A stretch of 64,000 nt of DNA from an uncultured Gammaproteobacteria bacterium. Lineage in GTDB: Bacteria; Patescibacteriota; Microgenomatia; 2-02-FULL-39-11. Below the pieces are notes generated by a model that did no database searches, was not told the DNA's origin, and worked only from the letters and a program-made list of their open reading frames with translations. Numbering within the stretch: the stretch's first letter is position 1; every line of letters starts with the position of its first letter. The position numbers and the translations under genes were made by a program. Shown piece by piece: positions 10,243-62,829 of the stretch. The stretch spans positions 67,468 to 131,467 of the forward strand of contig CAZJBV010000002.1 in the NCBI GenBank assembly GCA_964544585.1, given 5' to 3'.

Positions 10243-11204
10243 AAGATTTCACTATAGCGTTATGCACCTGCAACCGCTTATCGCTTCTAAAAAAATGTTT
10301 AAAAAGCATTATGGCAGATATTTCTCTCGAACAAATTGTAGTTTTGGATGCTGGCTCTATAGACGGTTCAGTTGAATTTCTAAGACGTCATCATAAAAAG
10401 GTCAAACTGGTACAATATCCGAAAATTGGACAAGCAAAAAGCCTCAATCGATTCTTCAAAACAGTTAGATCCAAATATGCTTGCTGGGTTAGTGATGATA
10501 ATATTATCAAAAAAGGAATGCTCAAAAAGGCAGAGAGAATCCTAGATGAAAATCCCCATATAGGTATGGTCGGATTGAAAGTCAAAGACGTCACTGGACC
10601 ATATAGAGACGAAGAATATATCGGAGGCATTTCCCAGGCTGGTATATTAAATGTAAATCAAGGTATGTTTCGCATGAACATTGCCCGAAAAGTGGGTTTT
10701 TTTGATGAAAAATTTCCAGATTATGGAATGGATGTAGATTTAACCACAAAAATTTTATTGGCTGGTCACAAAGTAGTCTATACAAAAAATATCGCCATAT
10801 TGCATTACCGCGATTACCATCAATATCCAGGGGCATTTGAGTTGGAAGATAGAAAAAAAAGATCCTTATTATCACACAAAATTTATGCTCGGAAATATCC
10901 AGTATTATGCAGAAAATATCGGCAAACAACTCTACTATATTACAGAACATATCTATTATTGCGATCGATAATCGTCATTCCGTTGCAATTAATCTATTCT
11001 TTTATATCCATCCCTTTGAGTAAAACAAGATTTATTTTTCTTCTTATCAATGCAAGGAGAAGGATAATCGATTTGAAAAATAGATATTTTGGTACAAAAC
11101 GAGATTGGAACAATATACTCCGCGGAAGATTTATCTCATACCTAGATCTCTGGTATAATCGGAACCGCGACTTTTACTTGGTTCAAAAAATAAAAAATCA
11201 TTGA
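10239..11204 (+). CDS. GT2 glycosyltransferase
   Basis: 'FTIALCTCNR' and 'VVLDAGSIDGS' are GT2 motifs; the C-terminal region has a TM segment. Confidence 0.75.
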   Translation: MKDFTIALCTCNRLSLLKKCLKSIMADISLEQIVVLDAGSIDGSVEFLRRHHKKVKLVQYPKIGQAKSLNRFFKTVRSKYACWVSDDNIIKKGMLKKAERILDENPHIGMVGLKVKDVTGPYRDEEYIGGISQAGILNVNQGMFRMNIARKVGFFDEKFPDYGMDVDLTTKILLAGHKVVYTKNIAILHYRDYHQYPGAFELEDRKKRSLLSHKIYARKYPVLCRKYRQTTLLYYRTYLLLRSIIVIPLQLIYSFISIPLSKTRFIFLLINARRRIIDLKNRYFGTKRDWNNILRGRFISYLDLWYNRNRDFYLVQKIKNH

Positions 11205-12262
11205 TAAAACACAAACCTAAACTAATCATCAAAAATAAAACTATTTCCCTTGAAAGCGATTGCTTTGTCGTGGCAGAAATAGGCCATAACCATCAGGGCA
11301 GTATCGAAATAGCCAAACAACTCTTTAAAGCAGCCAAAGAGTGTGGTGTCGATGCAGTCAAGTTACAAAAACGAAATAATAAAAAACTCTATACCCAGGA
11401 ATTTTATAATACTCCTTACAACAGCGAAAACGCATACGGACCAACATACGGCCGACACAGAGAAGCTCTCGAGTTTGGTGAAGGCCAGTTCAAGGAATTG
11501 AAAAAATATGCCGAGCATTTAGGATTAATCTTTTTTGCCACCCCATTTGATTTTGATAGCGTTGATTTTCTTGAGTCTATAGATACTCCCCTTTATAAAG
11601 TCGCATCAGGAGATTTGAGAAATATACCTCTTTTAGAATATATTGCCCGAAGGCAAAAGCCAATGCTTATTTCCACAGGCGGCGCGACCCTAGATGATGT
11701 CAAAAGAGCGTATAAGGTAGTAAGAGCCATCAATCCAAATTTTGCCATTCTACAATGCACCGCGTCATACCCGGCCGAGTTTTCAGAGCTAAATCTTCAT
11801 GTCATAAGTGAATATCAACGTCTCTTTCCTGACAACATCATTGGTTTTTCCGCTCATGACAACGGAATTGCCATGTCTGTAGCAGCCTATGTCCTAGGCG
11901 CAAGAGTTATCGAAAAACATTTTACCCTCAATAGAATCATGAAAGGTACAGATCACATATTTTCACTTGAGCCGGTTGGCATGAAGAAATTGGTCAGAGA
12001 TTTAAGAAGAGTCAAGGTGGGACTTGGAGATGGAGTTAAAAAAACGTATGAATCAGAAAAAGATCCAATACGCAAGATGAGTAAAACAATCGTCGCCGCA
12101 AAAGATATTCGTAAAGGACATGTTTTGACAAGTAAAGATTTAGCATTTAAATCACCAGGCGGTGGATTGCATCCCTATCAAATTGAAAAACTAATTGGAA
12201 AAAAAGTCAAAATACCTCTCAAAGAGGACGAGACAATAGCATTCGAACATCTTTATAAATGA
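11201..12262 (+). CDS. neuB: N-acetylneuraminate / nonulosonic acid synthase (NeuB family) with C-terminal SAF domain
   Basis: 'VVAEIGHNHQGS', 'FATPFD', 'YKVASGD', 'LISTGGATLDDV' and 'LQCTASYPAEF' align closely with the NeuB/PseI/LegI family. Confidence 0.85.
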   Translation: MIKHKPKLIIKNKTISLESDCFVVAEIGHNHQGSIEIAKQLFKAAKECGVDAVKLQKRNNKKLYTQEFYNTPYNSENAYGPTYGRHREALEFGEGQFKELKKYAEHLGLIFFATPFDFDSVDFLESIDTPLYKVASGDLRNIPLLEYIARRQKPMLISTGGATLDDVKRAYKVVRAINPNFAILQCTASYPAEFSELNLHVISEYQRLFPDNIIGFSAHDNGIAMSVAAYVLGARVIEKHFTLNRIMKGTDHIFSLEPVGMKKLVRDLRRVKVGLGDGVKKTYESEKDPIRKMSKTIVAAKDIRKGHVLTSKDLAFKSPGGGLHPYQIEKLIGKKVKIPLKEDETIAFEHLYK

Positions 12263-13083
12263 AAAAACCACTTGAATTATTTAAACTCGATGGCAATATA
12301 GCACTGGTTACTGGAGGCCTAGGAAATCTAGGGCCTTATTGGATAAAAGCGTTAAAAGGGGGTGGAGCAAAAGTAGTTTCGATTGATCTGCCGAACATAA
12401 AATCCTCTGACTATTACTTTTCCGTCGATATCACCGATATAAATCGTCTTCATAAATTACATACACAGATATCAAAAGATTTGGGAAGCGTTACAATACT
12501 TGTAAACAATGCCGGCATTGACGCACCACCCTCAAAGCACCTCGAAGGTGGCCGGCTTGCCCTGAGCGCAGTCGAAGGGGACTCCTTCGAGGTGAAGGAA
12601 ACAGGCTATGACTCCCCCGAGGTGAACAGGCTATATAAAAATATGTGGGATGTAAATGTCCAAGGTCTGGTAAATTGCATAGAAGTTTTTTCACCAGATA
12701 TGAAAAAGCAGAAGAAAGGAAGCATTATAAATATTGGCTCTCTCTATGGAGAAAAGTCACCAGACGAAAGATTATATAGCCATCTCGGTTTTGACAAGCC
12801 CTGGGCCTATGGAGCCACAAAAGCAGCGGTCCTTCAAGTTACTCGTCACTACTCCACCCGCCTTGCCAAATATAATATCAGAGTAAATACCTTATCACCG
12901 GGAGGAGTATTTAATAATCAAGATAAAGAATTTGTAAAAAAATATTCACAACACGTTCCCTTAGGCCGAATGGCAGAAAAAGTTACCGACCTTGCCGGCC
13001 CGCTTCTCTTTCTTGCCTCCGATGCATCAATCTATGTTACAGGCATAAATCTTCAAGTTAATGGCGGCTATACAGCTTGGTAA
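12259..13083 (+). CDS. SDR family oxidoreductase carrying an in-frame GC-rich palindromic element insertion
   Basis: 'ALVTGGLGNLG', 'NNAGI' and 'YGATKAAV' are SDR motifs. About 20 extra residues ('PPSKHLEGGRLALSAVEGDSFEV...') between NNAG and the catalytic region are encoded by the GC-rich repeat. Confidence 0.8.
   Translation: MKKPLELFKLDGNIALVTGGLGNLGPYWIKALKGGGAKVVSIDLPNIKSSDYYFSVDITDINRLHKLHTQISKDLGSVTILVNNAGIDAPPSKHLEGGRLALSAVEGDSFEVKETGYDSPEVNRLYKNMWDVNVQGLVNCIEVFSPDMKKQKKGSIINIGSLYGEKSPDERLYSHLGFDKPWAYGATKAAVLQVTRHYSTRLAKYNIRVNTLSPGGVFNNQDKEFVKKYSQHVPLGRMAEKVTDLAGPLLFLASDASIYVTGINLQVNGGYTAW
12538..12624. repeat. GC-rich nested palindromic element C1: arms CACCTCGAAGG/CCTTCGAGGTG plus an extra partial arm, in-frame inside the SDR gene
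   Basis: cacctcgaaggtggccgg...gggactccttcgaggtg at 12538-12594 and actcccccgaggtg at 12611-12624. A local GC spike in an AT-rich gene. Confidence 0.8.
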
Positions 13084-13087
13084 AAAT

Positions 13088-14518
13088 ATGAAATATCCCA
13101 CAAATATTTATCACTGGATTGGCAACAGAGAAACTGGAAATAAAGATACTAAATTAATTGCAAAAATAAATCCAAGAAACGGGCAAAAAATAGCCAAAAT
13201 AATTCAAGGAACCAATCAAGAGGTAAAATATGCAATTACCAAATCTTTAAATGCTTTTTCATCTTGGAGTCAAACTTCAATAATATCTCGTGCCAACATT
13301 CTCCGCGAGACCGCCATTTTGGTGCAAAAAAGAAAGGATGAAATAGCCCAAATAGTTCATCTGGAAACGGGAAAATCTTTAAAAGATGCAACAAACGAAG
13401 TAGAAGGAGCAATAGAATTAGGCTTTTTTATGGCAGGGGAGGGGAGAAGATATTATGGGAAAACAACCACATCGGCACAAGAAAATAGGTGGGCATACAC
13501 CATAAGACAACCAGTTGGAGTTTGCGCTTTAATAGTTCCTTTTAATACTCCTATTGCCAATGTAACCTGGAAAGCATTTCCAGCCCTTCTTTGCGGAAAT
13601 ACGTGTGTGGCAAAAGCTGCCTCAGATACGCCTTACACTCCCATTTGGTTTGGGAAAATTCTAAAAGAGGCAGGACTGCCTGACGGAATCTACAACGTCA
13701 TCCAAGGAAGCGGAGAGGAAATAGGAGGTGCTCTGCTTGATGACAGAAGAATAAATCTTATTAGCTTCACCGGATCGGTCGAAACCGGAAAATATATTCA
13801 AAAAAAGGTTGCAAATCGTTTGGTCAAAGTAAGTCTTGAATTGGGAGGAAAAAATCCTCTTATTGTCTGCGACGACGCCAATCTAGAAGAAGCTGCCAAC
13901 CAGGCAATACTTTCAGCATTTTCCAATGCCGGACAGCGCTGTTCTTCCGGAAGTAGAATTATAGTTTTCGAAAAAATATACGAACAATTCAAAAAGCTTT
14001 TTATAGAAAAAACAAAAACTTACAAAGTAGGACCAGTGATAAATGAAAAGCAATTAAACAAAATGATTTCAATCATGGACAGAGTTGTTAAGTCTGGAAA
14101 AGTTAAATTAATTTTAGGAGGAAATAGAAAAGTCGATAGACCAGGTTACTTTCTTGCTCCTACTATTCTCGAATCAAAACAAAAAAGCGAGTATGATGAC
14201 GAAGAATTATTTGGCCCAATCACTTCTCTCTATAAAGTAAAAAATTTAGATCAAGCTTTAGAATTAACAAACAACTCTCCCTATGGTTTAACCGCAGCAA
14301 TTCATACCGCAAGTATTCATAAAGAAGAGTATTTTATAAATCACGCCAGAGTAGGAGTAGTATCAGTAAACGGCCCGACCTATGGCAGCGAACCCCATTT
14401 GCCTTTCGGAGGCTTGAGAAATTCGGGTAATGGTCATCGAGAACCAGGCACAGAAGCCCTAGACTTCTATTCTGAATGGAAAACCGTTTATATAAAGCAC
14501 AGCCCCGAGAATATTTAG
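13088..14518 (+). CDS. aldehyde dehydrogenase family protein
   Basis: 'ELGGKNP' and 'GQRCSSGSR' are ALDH catalytic motifs. The alternative start at 13061 overlaps the upstream gene. Confidence 0.85.
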   Translation: MKYPTNIYHWIGNRETGNKDTKLIAKINPRNGQKIAKIIQGTNQEVKYAITKSLNAFSSWSQTSIISRANILRETAILVQKRKDEIAQIVHLETGKSLKDATNEVEGAIELGFFMAGEGRRYYGKTTTSAQENRWAYTIRQPVGVCALIVPFNTPIANVTWKAFPALLCGNTCVAKAASDTPYTPIWFGKILKEAGLPDGIYNVIQGSGEEIGGALLDDRRINLISFTGSVETGKYIQKKVANRLVKVSLELGGKNPLIVCDDANLEEAANQAILSAFSNAGQRCSSGSRIIVFEKIYEQFKKLFIEKTKTYKVGPVINEKQLNKMISIMDRVVKSGKVKLILGGNRKVDRPGYFLAPTILESKQKSEYDDEELFGPITSLYKVKNLDQALELTNNSPYGLTAAIHTASIHKEEYFINHARVGVVSVNGPTYGSEPHLPFGGLRNSGNGHREPGTEALDFYSEWKTVYIKHSPENI

Positions 14519-15295
14519 ATGATGAAAATTCCATCAATTATTGCTCTGATACCCGCACGCTCCGGATCTAAAAGAATTAAAGATAAAAATATAAATGAAC
14601 TTGCTGGCCATCCACTAATCGCCTACACCATAGCGGGAGCGTTAGAATCAGGAATATTTAAAAAAATAATAGTCTCAACCGATAGCCCACAATACGCCAA
14701 AATTGCAGAATATTATGGCGCAGAAGTTCCCTTTTTGCGTCCTTCCGAGTTTGCCAAGTCGACTTCACCTGACATCGAATGGCTCCATTACACTCTGAAA
14801 AAACTCCGGAATGATGAAAATGGCACAATTGAAGACTGTTTTGCCATTTTAAGACCCACAAGTCCGGGAAGGTTATCCGAAACCATAAAACGGGCTTGGA
14901 AGCTATTTCTCGATGATGGCAATGCAGATAGTCTTCGCGCAGTTGAAATTTGCTCTCAACATCCGGCTAAAATGTGGATTGTTGATAAAAAGATTAATCG
15001 CATCCATCCCGTAATGGTCAATCCTGACAAAAAAGATATACCATGGCACAGCCAGCAATTTCCCTCCCTTCCCAAAGTCTATGCTCAAAATGCCAGTCTG
15101 GAAATTGCCTGGACTCGCCTTCCTCTTGAAAAATATTCTCTATCAGGAGATAAAATCATGCCCTTCTTTACTAATGAATCAGAAGGATTTGATCTAAATT
15201 CTGAATGGGACTGGATAATTGCTGAAAATATGCTAAAGAGAGGCAGATTGATTCTGCCAAAAGTAAAGAAACCTCCGTATGAAAAATATTCTTAA
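14519..15295 (+). CDS. neuA: acylneuraminate (nonulosonate) cytidylyltransferase, CMP-sugar synthetase
   Basis: N-terminal 'IIALIPARSGSKRIKDKN' is the CTP_transf_3 signature. Confidence 0.8.
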   Translation: MMKIPSIIALIPARSGSKRIKDKNINELAGHPLIAYTIAGALESGIFKKIIVSTDSPQYAKIAEYYGAEVPFLRPSEFAKSTSPDIEWLHYTLKKLRNDENGTIEDCFAILRPTSPGRLSETIKRAWKLFLDDGNADSLRAVEICSQHPAKMWIVDKKINRIHPVMVNPDKKDIPWHSQQFPSLPKVYAQNASLEIAWTRLPLEKYSLSGDKIMPFFTNESEGFDLNSEWDWIIAENMLKRGRLILPKVKKPPYEKYS

Positions 15296-17195
15296 TCAAA
15301 CAGGGTATATAGGAGCTAATACATTCCAGCTACTTGAAAAAAAGAAGTATCTTGACACAATTGCCGATTGTATACGCTACAATACGCTTTTATCTGTAGC
15401 TCGCGCCGGCACAGGACACTTGGGAGCTTCTCTTTCAATAATAGAAACGCTAACTGAAATTTATTTTCGTTCTTTTAACTTTGATCTACAAAATTTAAAT
15501 AATCCCCACCGCGACATCTTTATCCTCTCCAAAGGTCATGCAGCTCCATCTCTCTATACAACTTTAGCCGCCAAAGGCTATTTTCCCATAGAATCGCTTG
15601 ACTCTCTTCGAAGACTCAATGGTCTTCAAGGTCATTGCGATATTGTAACGTTGGGTATTGAAGCAAATACCGGCTCTCTGGCCATGGGTCTATCCAAAGC
15701 AGTAGGCTACTCAATCTTAAAAAAAAGAATGGGATTAAAAGGTAATGTCCTGTGTTTAGTCGGAGATGGAGAATTACAAGAAGGCCAATGCTGGGAAGCC
15801 TTTCTTTCGGCAATAAGTTTCTCTTGTGACAATTTATTCGTTGTCATAGACGATAACCAAGTCCAGACAGATCAATACACCAATAATATTGTTAAGTACA
15901 ATGACATAATAAGTACGCTTTCCTCAATAGGTTTTGCAGTAGTTGAAAAAAACGGTCGGAAAAGCGATGAAATCTACAAAGGTTTTAACTCATTAAAAAA
16001 AGCCAAAATACCAAAACTCCTCTATCTTCATACAGTCAAAGGCCAGGGGGTTTCATATATGGAACACACGAATATATTGAATAAAAAAAATGCTAAATAT
16101 ATCTGGCACAACAAACCACCAACAAAAGAATTATTAAGAATTGCTCTCGAAGAAATTTTAAAAAGGATTAAAAATATTCTTAAATCAGAAAATCTTTCAT
16201 TCAATATAAACCCATCTCTACAGTCTATACCGAGGGAACCGGGAGAAACAGGTATCGAAGGAAAAAACATCATTGCTGGTTTTGCAGAAGGACTAAAAGA
16301 AATAGCCTCAAAAAATAAAAGAATCGTCGTCCTCGACGGAGATCTGGAAGAAGATTGTGGTTTCATCCCATTCCATAAATCATACCCCAAACGATTTTTT
16401 GAAATGGGGATTATGGAACAACACATTGTTTCAGCAGCATCAGCCTTTTCTCGACTTGGGTATATTCCTGTAATCTCCACATATGCCGCATTTCTCACCG
16501 CCAGAGCCAACGAGCAAATCTATAATTTAGTAACAGAAAGTGGAAAAGCCTTAATAGTCGGTAATATGGCAGGTATACTTCCGGCCACTCCAGGAAAGTC
16601 TCATCAAGCATTTCGGGATATTGCCTGCATGAAAAATATACCCGGAATTACCATGTACCAGCCAGTCTCGGCTCAAGATGTAAAAAACATCCTCAATAGA
16701 TATTTCCAAGGTTTATTAGGCAAAATTGTCTATATTCGTTTATCAATGGCCGCATCCCGCATTGAGTTGGCAACGTCACCCATTTCTTTAAAAAAAGGAG
16801 TTTCACATATACTCAAAAAAGGCAAAGATGCTCTCGCGATCGGGATAGGGCCTGTAGTTTTGGGAGAATGTCTAAAGTCAGCCGAAAATTTAAAAGAAAA
16901 TGGCATAAATGTCGAAATCTGGAATCATCCCTGGCTTATTGATTTTGACAAAAACCAATTGCGTCAAGCTTCAAAAAGGAAAATTCCTTTAATTATCATC
17001 GAAGATCACTATATAAAAGGAGGATTTGGTGAAAGCCTTTTGTCATTTTTAAGATTAAATAATATTTCCTTTAACAAAATAAAGCATATTGGGATAAAGA
17101 ATATTCCTCAGACAGGCTTTAGACAGGAGGCGCTCGAAACACAAGGGTTAGATAGCAACTCATTAATCTCCGGTATAAAAAGCTTGCTTCAATGA
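15279..17195 (+). CDS. transketolase (fused N-terminal TPP-binding and C-terminal pyrimidine-binding domains)
   Basis: 'GHLGASLS', 'SKGHAAPSLY' and 'GDGELQEGQCWEA' in the N-terminal half, plus a transketolase C-terminal half. Confidence 0.8.
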   Translation: MKNILNQTGYIGANTFQLLEKKKYLDTIADCIRYNTLLSVARAGTGHLGASLSIIETLTEIYFRSFNFDLQNLNNPHRDIFILSKGHAAPSLYTTLAAKGYFPIESLDSLRRLNGLQGHCDIVTLGIEANTGSLAMGLSKAVGYSILKKRMGLKGNVLCLVGDGELQEGQCWEAFLSAISFSCDNLFVVIDDNQVQTDQYTNNIVKYNDIISTLSSIGFAVVEKNGRKSDEIYKGFNSLKKAKIPKLLYLHTVKGQGVSYMEHTNILNKKNAKYIWHNKPPTKELLRIALEEILKRIKNILKSENLSFNINPSLQSIPREPGETGIEGKNIIAGFAEGLKEIASKNKRIVVLDGDLEEDCGFIPFHKSYPKRFFEMGIMEQHIVSAASAFSRLGYIPVISTYAAFLTARANEQIYNLVTESGKALIVGNMAGILPATPGKSHQAFRDIACMKNIPGITMYQPVSAQDVKNILNRYFQGLLGKIVYIRLSMAASRIELATSPISLKKGVSHILKKGKDALAIGIGPVVLGECLKSAENLKENGINVEIWNHPWLIDFDKNQLRQASKRKIPLIIIEDHYIKGGFGESLLSFLRLNNISFNKIKHIGIKNIPQTGFRQEALETQGLDSNSLISGIKSLLQ

Positions 17196-19769: not shown

Positions 19770-21073
19770 AGGATATAGATATTCTTTGGTTCATCGAACA
19801 TATTGCCCGTGAGTTGGATGTAGCAGTCTTAGCAAGCTTAATTATCAACAAAAAATACGGCCTGACAGTAAAAATAGAACAGATATCAAATCTTAAGAAA
19901 ATAGAAAAGCTTTACAATCCCAAAATTATTCTCCTTCCTTATTGTTATGTTGCCACCGATGGTTATATAGAAAGAATAATTTCGATATGGCCAAAGAGTG
20001 TCTTTATCAATCTTGCTTGGGAGCAAATTTTTTATAATGCCAACAAAATATATAAATTGCCCCGCGACTATTTTGCTCGAAATTGCGTTTATCACCATGC
20101 CTGGAGCAAAACCAGAAAAAAAATACTTAAAAAGCTCGATATTCCAGACAAAAATATTTTTCTAAATGGCCAACCCGCCTATAAATTATATGATGAGCCA
20201 TACAAAAAACTTTTTATCAGTCGTAAAAATCTGGCAGAAAGATATCAATTAGATACTAACAAAACATGGATTTTCTTTCCCGAAAACTACAGTTGGTATT
20301 TCTATTCAAAAGAAACAATCCAAAAGATCATCCAGGATGGTCAAGGAGTAAAAACCATCAGCACTCTAAAAAATTATTGCAAAGACAGCTTTACAATTGC
20401 ACTTGAATGGTTAAACCAGATCGCAAAAAGATATGAAGATACTGTTGAAATCATCCTTCGTCCGCGTCCCTCATTTAGCCAAGAATATTTTTTATGGCAA
20501 GTACAGAAATTAAAACCGTCTCTATCCAAAAATATAAGAGTTATAAAAGATTTTTCCATCAGAGAATGGATTTTAGCAAGCGATATCGTAATTTCATCAT
20601 TTTCAACTTCACTTATCGAAGCCGCCATAGCTAAAAAAACTCTTTATATACTTGAACCTAATCCCATGCCAAATGAATTAATTGCAGAGTGGTATAAATA
20701 TGTCGAGAAAATAAAAAGTCTGAATGGATTATTCTCTATCCTGCCGGCCAGCCTGCCGGTAGGCATGGCAGGCAGGAATAATTACTTAAAGCTTCGTACC
20801 TGGGCACGGTCTAATTTTTATGTAAAAGATGATCCCATCCAAGGACTTGCGGATATTCTTGCAAAAATACCAGAAAAACAACTTCCAGAATTAAAAAATA
20901 CAAAAAGTCTATTCCGTCAAGCACAGAAAAAGGCATTCTCAATATTAAGTAAATTAAAAAAAGCAACAACAACCACGGATGCATATTTTAAATTAGATGA
21001 TGATAAAATCTTTGAGTCAGAATTAAAAGATAAAATGATTCGTTATAAAAACTTTATTGATAAATATCTATGA
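19766..21073 (+). CDS. hypothetical surface-carbohydrate biosynthesis protein (GT-B-like; candidate nonulosonate/ulosonate transferase)
   Basis: 435 aa. The 'IVISSFSTSLIEAAIAKK' region resembles the C-terminal domain of TagF/KpsC-type GT-B transferases. Carries an in-frame GC-rich palindrome at 20741-20776. Confidence 0.5.
   Translation: MKDIDILWFIEHIARELDVAVLASLIINKKYGLTVKIEQISNLKKIEKLYNPKIILLPYCYVATDGYIERIISIWPKSVFINLAWEQIFYNANKIYKLPRDYFARNCVYHHAWSKTRKKILKKLDIPDKNIFLNGQPAYKLYDEPYKKLFISRKNLAERYQLDTNKTWIFFPENYSWYFYSKETIQKIIQDGQGVKTISTLKNYCKDSFTIALEWLNQIAKRYEDTVEIILRPRPSFSQEYFLWQVQKLKPSLSKNIRVIKDFSIREWILASDIVISSFSTSLIEAAIAKKTLYILEPNPMPNELIAEWYKYVEKIKSLNGLFSILPASLPVGMAGRNNYLKLRTWARSNFYVKDDPIQGLADILAKIPEKQLPELKNTKSLFRQAQKKAFSILSKLKKATTTTDAYFKLDDDKIFESELKDKMIRYKNFIDKYL
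20741..20776. repeat. GC-rich palindromic element A1 (core CCTGCCGG..CAGGCAGG), in-frame in hypothetical CDS
   Basis: ctgccggccagcctgccggtaggcatggcaggcagg; encodes 'PASLPVGMAGRN'. Confidence 0.75.
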
Positions 21074-28146: not shown

Positions 28147-29026
28147 TCTAAAAATAACAGTTCATATGATAGTCAAAAATGAAGATAGATTCATTTGGTA
28201 TGCGATTAAGTCAGTCTTAGATTATATTGATAAATTATTGATATTTGATACAGGAAGTAAAGATAATACAGTTGAAATAATAAAAAATATAAATTCCCCC
28301 AAAATAGATTTCGAACAAAAAGGCAATGTAAATTCAAAAAAATTAGTAGAATTACGCCAAGAGCAGATAGAAAAGACTAAAACAGACTGGATTTGGATAG
28401 TCGATGGAGATGAAATCTATCCAGATGTAACCATAAAAGAGATATTAAAATATATAAACCAAAATCGCCATATAGGCGGAATCGTCAGGCGCTTCGATCT
28501 ACTCGGGGATATTTATCATTATCAGGATGAAAGCGTAGGTAGTTACCATCTTTTAGGCATGACAGGACATCTCGTACTTCGATGTCTAAACATTAAAAAA
28601 ATTGACGGCCTTCATCTCAAAGGTCTTTACCCAAACGAAGGCTATTATGACAGAAATGACCAAGTACTCATTGATTACCCCCGCAAAGATTTCTTTTTTA
28701 CCAGAAATAGATTATTTCATGCCATGTATTTAGAGAGATCAAGTCTAGGTAGAAATTTATTACAGACGTTACACAGAAGAAAATATAAAATAGAGGAAGG
28801 CAATTATTTTTCCGCAACCGAGGAATTCCCCAATATTTTTTTCCAAAAACATCCCCAACTTGTTTCAGATGTGACGGCAACCCGTGATGTCCGCTACGAT
28901 ATTGCCGCAAAACTAATTACTCCGATAAAAAAACTAAAACGAAATATCTTTAATACACCTGGAAGGTGGCCGGATGCCTGCCTGCCGGCAAGGCAGGGAC
29001 TCCTTCCAGGTGGAAAAAATAAATGA
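28139..29026 (+). CDS. GT2-like glycosyltransferase whose C-terminal tail is encoded by a GC-rich palindromic element
   Basis: 'VHMIVKNEDRFI' and 'DTGSKDNT' in the N-terminal part. The last ~20 codons ('GRWPDACLPARQGLLPGGKNK') are encoded by repeat 28956-29013. Confidence 0.6.
   Translation: MANLKITVHMIVKNEDRFIWYAIKSVLDYIDKLLIFDTGSKDNTVEIIKNINSPKIDFEQKGNVNSKKLVELRQEQIEKTKTDWIWIVDGDEIYPDVTIKEILKYINQNRHIGGIVRRFDLLGDIYHYQDESVGSYHLLGMTGHLVLRCLNIKKIDGLHLKGLYPNEGYYDRNDQVLIDYPRKDFFFTRNRLFHAMYLERSSLGRNLLQTLHRRKYKIEEGNYFSATEEFPNIFFQKHPQLVSDVTATRDVRYDIAAKLITPIKKLKRNIFNTPGRWPDACLPARQGLLPGGKNK
28956..29013. repeat. GC-rich nested palindromic element A2 (outer arms CACCTGGAAGG/CCTTCCAGGTG, inner core CCTGCCTGCCGGCAAGGCAGG), forming the 3' end of a GT2 gene
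   Basis: cacctggaaggtggccggatgcctgcctgccggcaaggcagggactccttccaggtgg. It shares 'gaaggtggccgg' and 'gggactccttc.aggtg' with C1. Confidence 0.85.
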
Positions 29027-44296: not shown

Positions 44297-44317
44297 CCTG
44301 CCTGACCGGCAGGCAGG
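44297..44317. repeat. GC-rich palindromic element A3 (core only), intergenic, flanked by TTCATAATTCATA direct repeats; possible terminator hairpin
   Basis: cctgcctgaccggcaggcagg, lying between ...attcataattcata and cttcataattcataattc, 15 bp after the stop of the upstream CDS. Confidence 0.75.
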
Positions 44318-45440: not shown

Positions 45441-45477
45441 CACCTCCGAGGTGTGCGCATGCACTCCTCGGACGGTG
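45441..45477. repeat. GC-rich palindromic element B1 (CACCTCCGAGGTGTGCGCATGCACTCCTCGGACGGTG), intergenic/5' of the acetyltransferase
   Basis: Near-identical to B2 at 51244-51283, with about 33/37 positions matching. Confidence 0.85.
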
Positions 45478-45491
45478 TTGCATTAAGATCT

Positions 45492-46088
45492 ATGTTTAAA
45501 GACAAAGATGGTCGGAGTCTAAGCGTCCATGAGGCTAGCGTCAAGGGCGTAAATAGATTATTCAATATAATTCTCGATTTTGAACTCATGCTTCTTAGAT
45601 GGGTAGGGCATTTTCCCATCCATTTCATCCGCCGCTTTTTTTATCGACTCGCTGGTATAAAAATAGGCAACGGCTCCACTATCCACATGTGGGCAAACTT
45701 TTTCTATCCCCCAAACATCACAATTGGAGATGACACCACTATTGGTGACCACGCCTTTCTAGACGGGCGCGCCCCATTAACTATCGGCAATCACGTCGAT
45801 ATCGCCTCCCAAGTATTAATTTATAACTCTGAGCACGATATAAATGATCCTACATTCAAAGCTATAGTGCAAAATGTAGTCATAGAAGACTATGTATTTA
45901 TTGGTCCCCGCTCAATCATTCTTCCCGGTGTCACTATCGGCAAAGGTGCAATTATTGGCGCCGGAGCCGTAGTAACCGGTGACATTGACCCATTCACGGT
46001 AGTTGGTGGAGTTCCAGCAAAACCTATAACCAAACGCACTCTTCAAAACCCATCTTACCGCATTGGCCGCGCCCGACTCTTTCAATGA
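45492..46088 (+). CDS. left-handed beta-helix (hexapeptide repeat) sugar O-acetyltransferase (WcaF/WbbJ-like)
   Basis: Repeated 'IGD...IG' hexapeptide units ('ITIGDDTTIGDHAFLDG', 'VTIGKGAIIGAGAVVTG'). The ORF extends upstream to 45453 through GC-rich repeat B1, so the ATG at 45492 is the preferred start. Confidence 0.7.
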   Translation: MFKDKDGRSLSVHEASVKGVNRLFNIILDFELMLLRWVGHFPIHFIRRFFYRLAGIKIGNGSTIHMWANFFYPPNITIGDDTTIGDHAFLDGRAPLTIGNHVDIASQVLIYNSEHDINDPTFKAIVQNVVIEDYVFIGPRSIILPGVTIGKGAIIGAGAVVTGDIDPFTVVGGVPAKPITKRTLQNPSYRIGRARLFQ

Positions 46089-50069: not shown

Positions 50070-51301
50070 AAATTCTAATGCTCACTCCCTACCTTCCTTA
50101 CCCACTCCTCTCAGGTGGACAAATAAGAACATACAATCTTTTAAAAAATCTTGCCAAAAAGCACGACATCACCCTATTCTCATTTATAAGGCTTGAATCA
50201 GAAAAAAAATATATTCCTGAACTGCTAAAATTTTGCCAAAACGTTAGTACATTTAAACGACGTCCTGCATGGTCACATATAAACATCGCTTTATCTCTCC
50301 TCACCCCATTTCCTTTTTTGGTTTCCATTTATTATTCCCGCACACTACGCCGCGCTATTCAAAAGGAACTTCATAAAAACCATTATCATCTCATCCACTC
50401 CGAAACATTTTATGTCATGCCCAATATTCCTAAAACAACTGTTCCCATCCTTCTTGTGGAACAGACAATTGAATTTCTCGTCTACCAGCATTTCGTAGAA
50501 AATATTAAAATTCCTTTAAACCTCCTCTTATCCATCGACGTTGCCAAAATTCGCTTTTGGGAAAAATATTACTGGCGAAAAGCTGATAAAGTTGTGGCCA
50601 TGTCCAAAGCCGATGCCGACGTCATGGAAAAATTATCTCCTCACTTAGACGTCGATATCGTCCCCAATGGAGTCGACACCGATGAGTTTTTTAAAATCCA
50701 AAAGAAAAAAACGCGGGCTAAAACCATATTATTCGTCGGTAATTTTAAATGGCTACAAAATAAAGAAGCAGTGAAACTTTTAGTTGAAAAGATCTTTTCC
50801 CTGATTCATAAAAAACTACCAGAAGTCAAACTCTGGATAGTAGGCCGGTATCCTCCCTGGGAAATTAAAAAATATGAAAGCGGCAATATAAAAGTTTCAG
50901 ATAATATCGACGACATTAAAATAGCTTATGGTAACTCTGACGTACTTTTGGCCCCCATCTACGGACCGGGTGGCACCCGGTACAAAATTCTCGAGGCCAT
51001 GGCCGCGGGTCTTCCGGTAGTAACTACTACTCGTGGAATAGAAGGTCTCAACGCCAAAGACGGTACAGATGTCTTAGTCCGCGATTCAGTCGAAAGTCTA
51101 GCCAAGGCTACGATTGATGTCCTTATCAAAGAGAATCTTGCAAATAAATTGGCCACAAATGGTAAAAAGCTCATCGCCCAAAATTATGACTGGAAAGAAA
51201 TATCGCAAAAACTTGACAATCTCTACGAAGAAGTCGCCTCAAAACACCTCCGAGGTGTGCGCATGCACTCCTCGGAGGTGGAGGAATCTGGAAAAAGTTG
51301 A
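50066..51301 (+). CDS. GT4 glycosyltransferase with a repeat-encoded C-terminal extension
   Basis: 'GGTRYKILEAMAAGLPVV'. The last ~17 codons ('HLRGVRMHSSEVEESGKS') are encoded by GC-rich repeat B2. Confidence 0.8.
   Translation: MKILMLTPYLPYPLLSGGQIRTYNLLKNLAKKHDITLFSFIRLESEKKYIPELLKFCQNVSTFKRRPAWSHINIALSLLTPFPFLVSIYYSRTLRRAIQKELHKNHYHLIHSETFYVMPNIPKTTVPILLVEQTIEFLVYQHFVENIKIPLNLLLSIDVAKIRFWEKYYWRKADKVVAMSKADADVMEKLSPHLDVDIVPNGVDTDEFFKIQKKKTRAKTILFVGNFKWLQNKEAVKLLVEKIFSLIHKKLPEVKLWIVGRYPPWEIKKYESGNIKVSDNIDDIKIAYGNSDVLLAPIYGPGGTRYKILEAMAAGLPVVTTTRGIEGLNAKDGTDVLVRDSVESLAKATIDVLIKENLANKLATNGKKLIAQNYDWKEISQKLDNLYEEVASKHLRGVRMHSSEVEESGKS
51244..51283. repeat. GC-rich palindromic element B2 (CACCTCCGAGGTGTGCGCATGCACTCCTCGGAGGTGGAGG), forming the 3' end of a GT4 gene
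   Basis: Perfect arms cacctccgagg/cctcggaggtg around gtgtgcgcatgcact; encodes 'HLRGVRMHSSEVEE'. Confidence 0.85.
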
Positions 51302-61917: not shown

Positions 61918-62829
61918 ATGATCCGAAATGAAAACGAATTTCATACTCCCGTCTTACTCTCACAGGTGATTGTCGGCCTCAATATAAAAAAAGGTGGCCT
62001 TTATATAGATGCCACAATCGGAGGGGGAGGTCACACAAGAGAAATATTGCAACTTGAAGGAAAAGTATTAGGCATTGATCAAGATCCAAACGCCGTTGAA
62101 TATGTAAAAGATCATATTCAAAATCCAAATCTCCTCCTCCAAGTGGGCAATTTTAGAGATATAAAAGAAATTGCCCAAAAATTTGGCTTTAATAAAGTAG
62201 ACGGAATTTTATTTGACCTTGGCATATCGAGCTATCAGTTAGACAAGGGTAGTAAGGGATTTTCCTTTCTCAAAGATGAACCGCTCGATATGCGGATGGA
62301 TAAAAGAAGTTGGCCCGTAACAGCTGAGAAAGTGGTAAATAAATATTCTGTGAGTGAGCTTTATGACATATTTACGTTATTTGCTGAGGAAATCGATTCT
62401 CGGGATGTTTCTAAAAATATTGTTCGCGCCCGTAAAATAAAGCCGATAAAAACCACGGCAGATTTAGTTTCGGCCGCAGGTCTGGATCTAGCTAAGATTG
62501 AAGATATCGGCAAAGCTGCGCGCATTTTTCAAGCAGTGAGAATCGAGGTGAACCAGGAGTTAGAAAATTTAAAAAGGGCTATCCCAGAGGCAACGGCTCT
62601 ATTAGTTAGGGGCGGAAGATTGTTATTTATCAGCTTTCATTCCCTGGAAGATAGAATCATCAAGTTACAAATGAGAAAGGCCATGCCTGCCGGCAGGCAG
62701 GGCCTGCCTGCCGGTAGGCAGGAAAAAATTCAGGAACTGACAAAAAAACCAATAGTTCCAGATGAAAAAGAACAAAGGATAAACCCGAGATCAAGATCGG
62801 CCAAATTAAGAATCTATGAGAAAATATAG
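61918..62829 (+). CDS. rsmH: 16S rRNA (cytosine1402-N4)-methyltransferase RsmH, with an in-frame GC-rich palindromic insertion near the C-terminus
   Basis: 'HTPVLL', 'YIDATIGGGGH', 'FDLGISSYQLD' and 'LDMRMD'. The extra 'AMPAGRQGLPAGRQ' is encoded by repeat 62685-62722. Confidence 0.9.
   Translation: MIRNENEFHTPVLLSQVIVGLNIKKGGLYIDATIGGGGHTREILQLEGKVLGIDQDPNAVEYVKDHIQNPNLLLQVGNFRDIKEIAQKFGFNKVDGILFDLGISSYQLDKGSKGFSFLKDEPLDMRMDKRSWPVTAEKVVNKYSVSELYDIFTLFAEEIDSRDVSKNIVRARKIKPIKTTADLVSAAGLDLAKIEDIGKAARIFQAVRIEVNQELENLKRAIPEATALLVRGGRLLFISFHSLEDRIIKLQMRKAMPAGRQGLPAGRQEKIQELTKKPIVPDEKEQRINPRSRSAKLRIYEKI
62685..62722. repeat. GC-rich palindromic element A4 (tandem double core), in-frame in rsmH
   Basis: gcctgccggcaggcagggcctgcctgccggtaggcagg. 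Confidence 0.8.

Follow-up and report, generated by a model that had tools for sequence, protein, structure and literature searches.

Rickettsia palindromic elements (RPEs) are palindromic repeats that lie in frame within many unrelated, apparently functional genes of a reduced-genome bacterium, at sites compatible with the fold of the encoded proteins (PMC10969869, PMC3733652). In yeast mitochondria, the GC cluster GC42 is accompanied by co-conversion of its flanks, exchange between species and the merger of modules (PMC4478555). Here, a GC-rich palindrome is described from a 64,000-nt stretch of contig CAZJBV010000002.1 (positions 67,468–131,467; GenBank assembly GCA_964544585.1; hereafter, the window), which is titled uncultured Gammaproteobacteria bacterium and is placed by GTDB in the Patescibacteriota (Microgenomatia; 2-02-FULL-39-11). 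The palindrome lies within a gene for a short-chain dehydrogenase/reductase (SDR) and probably represents one copy of a minute selfish DNA element, modular and hairpin-forming, rather than native SDR coding sequence.

Results

The focal composite (coordinates of all features in Table 1) is built on a perfect 11-bp stem (CACCTCGAAGG/CCTTCGAGGTG) with a DNA folding energy of -15.6 kcal/mol (z = -3.1), and matches a covariance model of its family (26.1 bits, E = 1e-4). The loop that follows the NNAGID motif varies among 43 SDR homologues, from no residues in the shortest to ~21 in most, and reaches 39 in the window. The closest orthologue (P0002/L006) has a 16-residue AT-rich loop and no element, and the ~20-residue segment was not found in AT-rich codons in the orthologues. 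The original prediction had held that the palindrome adds about 20 residues to the loop after NNAG of an otherwise normal SDR, and sequence and fold agree: AlphaFold, run on the alignment, returned a confident Rossmann fold (pTM 0.86) in which residues 91–110 have pLDDT <50 and the insert (residues 94–122) is a coil between β4 (80–83) and α4 (from 120). The model, with its low-confidence surface loop on a confidently predicted SDR fold, points to an in-frame insertion at a tolerant site.

Three other SDR orthologues (L003, L004 and L005) carry copies of the same type (A-type, see below) in the same loop, with a DSPEV arm in the same frame. The copy in L004 is minimal (36 nt, CACCTCGGGGGTGGCCGGATGGATTCCCCCGAGGTG), while those in L003 and L005 are longer, that of L005 with another inner palindrome (CCGCCAGCTGGCGG). 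In the window, a spacer of 15 nt separates the focal composite from a second, unpaired 3' arm, which together with its junction (GCTATGACTCCCCCGAGGTGAAyArGyTATATAAAAA) also occurs in L003, the arm alone occurring in L005 as well. The arm and its downstream junction are nearly base-for-base the same in the window and L003, in genes that are otherwise far less similar. The sequences suggest a history of at least two events at this locus, of which the older would have left the relic DSPEV arm common to L003 and L005, and the younger the complete copy with a nested module alongside. Presence or absence at a given site is patchy on host-gene trees; a neighbour-joining tree from conserved SDR columns placed the filled window gene, P0004 and P0008 beside empty genes, and the filled P0017 without a close neighbour. 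As a separate observation, three SDR homologues (P0009, P0016 and P0029) have called N-terminal extensions, such as MADPSTQPALSQVEGVG, that resemble D-type modules upstream of the true start; these starts were probably miscalled because the GC-rich element is stop-free.

All seven palindromes that had been reported from the window are present, one of them starting at 51245 rather than 51244, and they far exceed shuffle expectation. Against dinucleotide shuffles, CACCTNNNAGGTG with ≤1 mismatch was found 8 times (0.53 expected; 0/100 shuffles reach 8), CCTGCCGGCAGG with ≤1 mismatch 4 times (0.05 expected; 0/100 reach 4) and GACTCCYYSGAGGTG with ≤2 mismatches 9 times (0.20 expected; 0/100 reach 9). 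When folded as single-stranded DNA, seven of eight stretches beat all 200 of their shuffles (z -3.1 to -8.3), the one exception being the 87-nt stretch that spans both the focal copy and the relic arm (z only -1.6). The low-GC setting was likewise borne out (0.29–0.42 per kb for the window, 0.65–0.72 for the elements). At least five copies had been placed inside open reading frames (ORFs), in frame, and five of the seven are indeed in frame, though two of these, in the GT2 and GT4 genes (28956 and 51245), form C-terminal tails within the last 20–25 codons rather than internal loops. The GT2 copy lies in the last 23 codons of its gene, the ATG of the next gene lying 10 nt beyond the element. 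The copy at 45441 is intergenic, upstream of the probable ATG (45492) of a hexapeptide-transferase gene, and is identical to the copy at 51245 but for a single inserted C. A listed ORF at 45453–46088 starts at a GTG inside this hairpin (VRMHSSDGV), a probable further case of a stop-free element lengthening an ORF call.

The seven copies had been taken for a single family, which does not hold: there are three separate modular families (A/B, C and D), and the CCTGCC..GGCAGG core is an independent module, as is the inner sequence of the focal copy. A covariance model of the outer-arm type, built from copies in other genomes and run over the whole 64 kb with filters off, recovered only 12539, 28957, 45441 and 51245. 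The A/B unit, CACCTnnnRGGTG-loop-CTCCYn'n'n'AGGTG, is 34–36 nt long (43–60 nt in composites), with a loop of 8–12 nt and an 11-bp stem made of fixed ends (CACCT...AGGTG), a freely varying complementary core of 3–4 bp and an adjacent conserved T.T mismatch. Each arm is by itself a CACCT-nnn-AGGTG mini-palindrome, and all four copies in the window lie on the plus strand. The C type (CCTGCCTGCCGGCAGGCAGG, a 21-nt unit) and the D type (CCyGAGCGwAGTCGArGG, ~24 nt) nest inside A loops, contributing 21 or 24 nt. C-type units were found in 8 other loci of the candidate phyla radiation (CPR); among the loci fetched from the genome scan described below, the D module is nested in 8 more A-type copies and free-standing at 10 places. 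Rfam gave no match at gathering score, and permissive searches gave only chance-level hits. A Shine-Dalgarno role for the arms, which resemble GGAGGTG and CACCTCC, was rejected, the CCTCC core not being conserved across variants and the spacing to start codons being inconsistent.

The exact C-type 20-mer (CCTGCCTGCCGGCAGGCAGG) also occurs in 35 stretches of IMG/VR contigs, mostly GC-rich (loci noted: L157, L134 and L164). In L157 (2239–2330; viral contig IMGVR_UViG_3300033148_008720), ARAGORN calls a 92-nt tRNA-Met whose long variable arm consists of the 20-mer, and in L164 it apparently lies in the D-loop-like part of a tRNA-like sequence for which ARAGORN makes no call. By these matches, the C module extends far past the CPR and can land in tRNA genes.

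Other genomes, one per species, were scanned with a pattern that left four core positions per arm free. The scan returned at least 116 stretches; the figures given here for 121 copies and ~105 low-GC stretches are those among the matches listed, and more than 100 further copies of the family exist by this count, which disposes of the possibility that the window copies are alone. The ~105 stretches come from low-GC metagenome-assembled genomes, most of which are titled Davies-, Gottesman-, Curtiss-, Levy-, Shapiro- or Beckwithbacteria, 'Microgenomates' or 'Patescibacteria group', with many titled 'uncultured Gammaproteobacteria ... binchicken' and a few Omnitrophota or Planctomycetia. About 10 matches in genomes of >0.6 GC have non-complementary cores, as expected of chance matches. 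A scan of metagenomes for the loop variant specific to the window found one real extra copy and one chance match, and a viral scan for the A-type found chance matches only, in GC-rich contigs and without complementarity.

At least 17 cores were found, each with its matching complement (CGAA, CCGA, GGAA, CGGG, TCCA, CGGA, GGGA, CCCA, ACGA and others). At the four free stem positions, 98.7% of cells pair and 82 cells are changed on both sides; 0/500 shuffles were as high, and slid controls reached ≤55% pairing. The test is a fair one because the scan pattern did not require complementarity, and the hairpin is either maintained or generated. Two loop types predominate, the 34-nt form having GGGCTTTGA and the 36-nt form GGCCGAATGGA; all listed copies from Daviesbacteria assemblies are of the 34-nt type and all those from the Gottesmanbacteria assembly JACREK01 of the 35–36-nt type, while the window has a loop of its own (TGCGCATGCA, present twice). 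By these copies, the A/B subfamilies are lineage-specific.

Several records merit separate mention. The records titled 'uncultured Gammaproteobacteria bacterium ... binchicken/SRP...' with 0.36–0.47 GC (L007, L009, L012–L014, L017, L023, L027, L032, L081, L091 and others) carry Daviesbacteria-like genes, including a MurB on CAZJNI010000001 (P0131) that is 63% identical to that of Daviesbacteria, and their titles look wrong. Intergenic A-type copies in L010, L040 (4950–5090), L087 and L114 sit in larger conserved non-coding composites, which possess one additional arm (CACCTGGAAGGAG...) together with a long outer stem (TTCAGTTCTTTCC / GGGAAAAACTGAA), while those in L013, L079, L110 and L119 follow a shared upstream motif (ACCTCGCAGGAGTCGAGGTCGTTGCCTCGC); the larger composites, for which Rfam gave no match, could be structured RNAs or larger parent elements. 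Outside the named CPR, A-type variants occur in L029, L090 and L107 (titled Omnitrophota) and in L064, L094 and L100 (titled Planctomycetia, low GC), where they are intergenic, with lineage-specific cores (ACGA/TCGT) and a conserved downstream GTTCAGGTTCTT or GCGAAGCACGGTTGAAG; the variant in L094 follows a tRNA-like sequence.

Approximately 85 of the 121 copies (~70%) are bordered on either side by 40 or more open codons. With flanking bases counted, the net gain is in every case divisible by 3 (36, 39, 48, 57 or 60 nt). Copies occur in both orientations and in five of the six reading frames. The 34-nt type in genes lies 19 times in gene orientation and 31 times opposite, the split predicted by its two versus three stop-free frames; frame 0 of the same strand contains TGA and is never used inside an ORF. 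Elements carrying an in-frame stop were never found to interrupt an ORF, and there is thus no sign of excision. Depending on frame and orientation, the encoded peptides are HLEGGRMDSFEV, TSKVGFDSFEV, HLEGVKAHLRGV, TSKESKPTFEV or PRRSQSPPSRW, and such unrelated products speak against peptide-level selection as well as against a role tied to one RNA strand. Among the flanks, neither a conserved tag nor a G at -1 was found (+1 and +2 are R, then A), a GTAG or CGTC tag falls within 8 nt of an end in only 0–3 of 121 copies, and no T-run follows the hairpins, the downstream flank being G/A, then A. Identity as an intrinsic terminator was rejected for this reason and for the location of most copies in mid-ORF.

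The copies are found at loops or termini and are read through as 7–20 extra residues, and the same loops are occupied in orthologues of PurL, MurB, AspRS, pfkB kinase, CCA-adding enzyme, TrpRS, TsaD and TlyA. In PurL, the same loop is filled at five loci, where copies of 34 nt occur in both orientations alongside one of 36 nt and a nested one of 58 nt. Among 120 Daviesbacteria-like MurB sequences, counted by eye at a single β-turn, ~45 hold a full element in either orientation, some with D or C nested, ~20 hold SHLGGV or SHPRGV, read from the protein as a single CACCTnnnAGGTG arm, and ~50 are empty. A second hot spot in the MurB alignment (columns 198–236) has recurrent peptides (SEPESIQIYGSRVK, DSGQAR, AKAGIYTNN..YGSRI and PKGVAISIKKDSHVA), which suggests that further element families may exist.

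Three near-identical gene pairs differ by an element. The MurB genes L125 (filled) and L126 (empty) are 98–100% identical in DNA, with ~200 nt around the element at 64–70%. The SDR genes L004 (filled) and L123 (empty) are 94–100% identical over most of the gene, with one 50-nt dip to 88%, and ~300 nt from the element on are at 40–82%. The third pair is rsmH in the window and in the sister Gottesmanbacteria genome GCA_016186845.1 (L168). The two genomes have 11 kb in common, ~99.9% identical from 53.6 to 64 kb, with mismatches in two clusters. One cluster, of 99 mismatches (52.9–53.6 kb; L168 278–980), lies where the glycan cluster starts diverging, near the end of the sister contig, and resembles a recombination boundary bordering the strain-specific glycan cluster. 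Of the remaining 28 mismatches, 19 fall in 62,600–62,800, within ~95 nt around a 42-nt indel that is exactly the C-type dimer and is absent from L168. The eight codons upstream of it carry seven changes, all synonymous, pointing to a diverged homologous donor rather than local mutagenesis. The insert is absent in all of ~120 other RsmH homologues, and the alignment with Thermus RsmH (1wg8) has a 14-residue gap at its position. In 20 kb of the dcw region of the sister genome, neither an A/B copy nor any GC-rich palindrome was found. Together, the pairs indicate that presence or absence at an occupied site travels with a short recombination patch, as gain or as loss.

The window is gene-dense, with nearly every gene on the plus strand. 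Pfam searches of nearly all of its ORFs (~55) delineated a large glycan-biosynthesis cluster (among its products GT2, GT4, PMT_2, FkbM methyltransferases, a Wzy-like protein, a flippase and a sugar transferase) and, after it, RecO, a class II aminoacyl-tRNA synthetase, MraZ and RsmH. Six of the seven palindromes lie within the variable glycan cluster, whose proteins had no relatives at ≥90% identity; the other element-bearing genes of the window are all singletons at 90%. A tRNA scan of the window found none, and no insertion sequence (IS) was found within the 64 kb. The operon that includes the SDR gene (11201–17195; NeuB-like synthase, SDR, aldehyde dehydrogenase, CMP-sugar-type cytidylyltransferase and transketolase/DXS-like protein) is conserved in related CPR contigs (L001, L003 and L005) and may encode a nonulosonic-acid-like sugar pathway in this Gottesmanbacteria genome.

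Table 1. Positions of the host gene and of the palindromic elements in the window
Feature	Position	Strand	Remarks
SDR host gene, 274 aa	12259–13083	+	Pfam adh_short, adh_short_C2; operon NeuB-SDR-aldehyde dehydrogenase-cytidylyltransferase-transketolase
Focal composite, 57 nt = 19 codons (HLEGGRLALSAVEGDSFEV)	12538–12594	+	A-type outer hairpin with nested D-type module; mid-gene in SDR
Focal 5' arm CACCTCGAAGGTG	12538–12550	+	CACCT-nnn-AGGTG mini-palindrome
Nested D-type module CTTGCCCTGAGCGCAGTCGAAGGG	12556–12579	+	In place of the ATG of the basic 36-nt loop; net +21 nt
Focal 3' arm GACTCCTTCGAGGTG, peptide DSFEV	12580–12594	+	Pattern match
Relic 3' arm GACTCCCCCGAGGTG, peptide DSPEV	12610–12624	+	Putative older copy, mid-gene in SDR; partner would be a lost CACCTCGGGGG, not the present 5' arm
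C-type composite	20740–20776	+	In frame, middle of an unannotated 435-aa ORF (LPASLPVGMAGRN); fold z -3.7
A-type, core GGAA/TTCC	28956–29012	+	Nested 21-nt C-type unit at 28977–28997; z -4.8; covariance-model match
C-type, single 21-nt unit	44297–44317	not assigned	Intergenic; z -4.1
B-type, loop TGCGCATGCA, one extra C in 3' arm	45441–45477	+	z -6.0; covariance model 35.1 bits
B-type, 36 nt	51245–51280	+	C-terminal tail of GT4 (HLRGVRMHSSEV); z -8.3; covariance model 47.3 bits
C-type dimer, 42-nt in-frame insertion	62678–62722	not assigned	rsmH, near the C-terminus (AMPAGRQGLPAGRQ)

Discussion

If the focal sequence is a copy of a selfish element, new sites would be colonised by a putative process acting in trans that depends on the hairpin and probably works on single-stranded DNA. 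Such a process is suggested by the fixity of the stem ends, a core that is free to vary and yet complementary, a conserved mismatch conferring polarity, the nesting in loops and the lineage-specific subfamilies. In gene-dense genomes, only stop-free, multiple-of-3 and loop-located insertions would survive; what lets copies persist in genes is a gain divisible by 3 nt, the lack of stops in five frames and a place in loops or tails. Short-patch homologous recombination, such as might follow DNA uptake, could then carry a filled or empty allele from one related lineage to another, and the complementarity of the stem would be kept either by selection on the hairpin or by templated correction of quasi-palindromes.

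A number of observations weigh against this interpretation. No pair of a filled and an untouched empty site was found that would define the inserted unit, each pair differing by a whole diverged patch and not by a clean indel. The SDR pair is weaker than the MurB and rsmH pairs, as its diverged tract also differs between two empty alleles (L123 and L124). Recurrent filling of the same loops in orthologues is as compatible with old insertions retained under selection as with mobility, and the nucleotides of the element are strongly conserved at orthologous sites relative to their flanks, which is unlike neutral junk DNA and makes a host function possible. A 2-nt flanking direct repeat (GA..GA, AA..AA) accompanies 30 of 121 copies against 17.4 expected, a modest enrichment in which orthologous copies inflate the count. 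Finally, the Pfam search of ~55 ORFs in the 64-kb window found no transposase, RAYT (the transposase associated with repetitive extragenic palindromic [REP] sequences), integrase or reverse transcriptase.

Confidence in the selfish interpretation is held down mainly by one alternative, that the hairpins are host-beneficial or drive-favoured DNA signals, such as uptake or recombination signals or sites for nucleoid or repair proteins, which would accumulate in genes because transformation and short-patch recombination favour the alleles that carry them. Such signals would account for sequence that is kept at orthologous sites despite diverged flanks, for copies that are indifferent to orientation and reading frame, for presence or absence that is always linked to a short imported patch and for an arm palindrome, CACCT-nnn-AGGTG, with the shape of a site for a dimeric protein; CPR bacteria, moreover, rely on DNA uptake. 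Known uptake sequences, however, occur about once per kb, and the density here is low, the window holding four A/B and three C copies in its 64 kb and the 20 kb from the sister genome none. Uptake sequences also originate by point mutation, while these are insertions of 21–57 nt, a double-stranded site would not require strict complementarity of a hypervariable core, and the sequence types vary by lineage. On balance, this explanation is judged unlikely, if still the most serious of the rivals. Less probable again is that the elements act at the RNA level, as hairpins that stabilise mRNA, mark processing sites, terminate transcription or pause translation, in which case the coding copies would be by-products. 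The high stability of the hairpins, the fact that 28956, 44297, 45441 and 51245, four of the seven in the window, lie at the ends of genes or in between, and the larger conserved multi-stem structures that enclose some intergenic copies would suit such a role, which has also been proposed for REPs (PMC3733652), but ~70% of the copies are in mid-ORF, where ribosomes would unwind them, the use of both orientations turns the T.T mismatch into U.U or A.A in RNA, and there is neither a T-run after the hairpins nor an Rfam family. A regulatory element, which the original prediction had left as an alternative, found nothing in its support.

Two further explanations fare worse. Mini-introns or mini-inteins, intervening sequences taken out post-transcriptionally or post-translationally and so missing from the mature proteins, would match the net lengths in multiples of 3 and the conserved positions in essential enzymes, yet all intragenic copies are stop-free in the frame that is used, the TGA frame is never used within an ORF, there are neither intein or intron features nor an Rfam match, and the encoded peptides have no sequence in common; this is very improbable. 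That the segment is GC-rich coding sequence by chance, or an unremarkable SDR loop specific to the lineage, could appeal to the variable length of the β4-α4 loop in this SDR family, but it is effectively refuted by the shuffle tests, the more than 100 homologous copies in unrelated genes, the covariation and the absence from the closest orthologue.

Should the selfish interpretation be correct, selfish palindromes of the Rickettsia type in protein genes would be extended to the CPR, where genomes are tiny and gene-dense and offer hardly any other place for such elements. The units are modular and nesting, and among the smallest reported with such behaviour. They mark sites of short-patch recombination and could serve as tracers of gene flow in uncultured organisms. 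For annotation, they inflate and distort CPR protein alignments, make spurious N- and C-terminal extensions and could pass for lineage-specific functional loops. The fixed stem ends and free complementary core point to a specific recognition machinery, and it can be proposed, as a speculation that is rather doubtful at present, that the A/B hairpins are the substrate of a novel hairpin-specific DNA system of the CPR, either a single-stranded DNA transposase or nuclease, or a machinery for uptake and recombination to which CACCT-nnn-AGGTG stems are the recognition sites. Through it, essential enzymes would acquire 12-codon insertions in their loops, and alleles would be replaced in short patches from lineage to lineage; much of the variation in protein length and of the mosaicism of genes in Microgenomates would then have an overlooked origin in these hairpins.

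Comparison with known systems

[quoted passage not shown] They differ in size (70–300 bp) and in having terminal inverted repeats of 15–30 bp, a non-palindromic interior, clear target-site duplications and a parent IS; the whole A/B unit is a single hairpin of 34–36 nt, no IS lies in the window, and the signal for a target duplication is the modest 2-nt repeat given above. REPs are closer in dimensions, being imperfect palindromes of 20–40 nt with stems of 5–13 bp that form lineage-specific families, some of them intragenic (PMC3733652). In contrast to tagged REPs, the present elements have no GTAG/CGTC tag, are ~70% intragenic rather than mostly downstream of genes and are usually single instead of head-to-head dimers, and no RAYT is encoded among the ~55 ORFs of the window.

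The resemblance to RPEs that had been proposed holds for behaviour, as the elements are inserted in frame into unrelated housekeeping ORFs at structurally tolerant sites, and fails for membership, for which size, peptide conservation and taxon all differ. RPEs are ~100–150 bp long, while the units here are 34–36 nt with nested modules of 21–24 nt; an RPE family encodes a conserved peptide in one frame, while here five frames in both orientations give unrelated peptides; and the hypervariable complementary core and occurrence in the CPR rather than Rickettsia set the elements apart by features, not by a comparison of sequences. A full-text literature search found no description in CPR, Patescibacteria or Microgenomates, although one may exist outside the literature searched. 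The suggestion that the family is new has thus gained in weight, with no Rfam match either, but falls short of proof; the A/B hairpins are apparently an undescribed family outside the RPEs, the tagged REPs and the MITEs.

The yeast mitochondrial GC clusters share several traits: they are GC-rich palindromes of 30–60 nt in an AT-rich genome, with a constrained stem and a putative 2-nt target duplication (in the present elements, the modest 2-nt repeat), their modules merge or nest, diverged co-conversion tracts lie beside filled sites, and exchange between lineages proceeds by homologous recombination (PMC4478555). GC clusters are organellar, mostly intergenic and unrelated in sequence, whereas the present elements come from bacteria, lie mostly within genes and in every case add a multiple of 3 nt. 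The match is one of analogy and not of membership, and by that analogy the behaviour of these hairpins appears closer to that of the GC clusters than to that of the RPEs.

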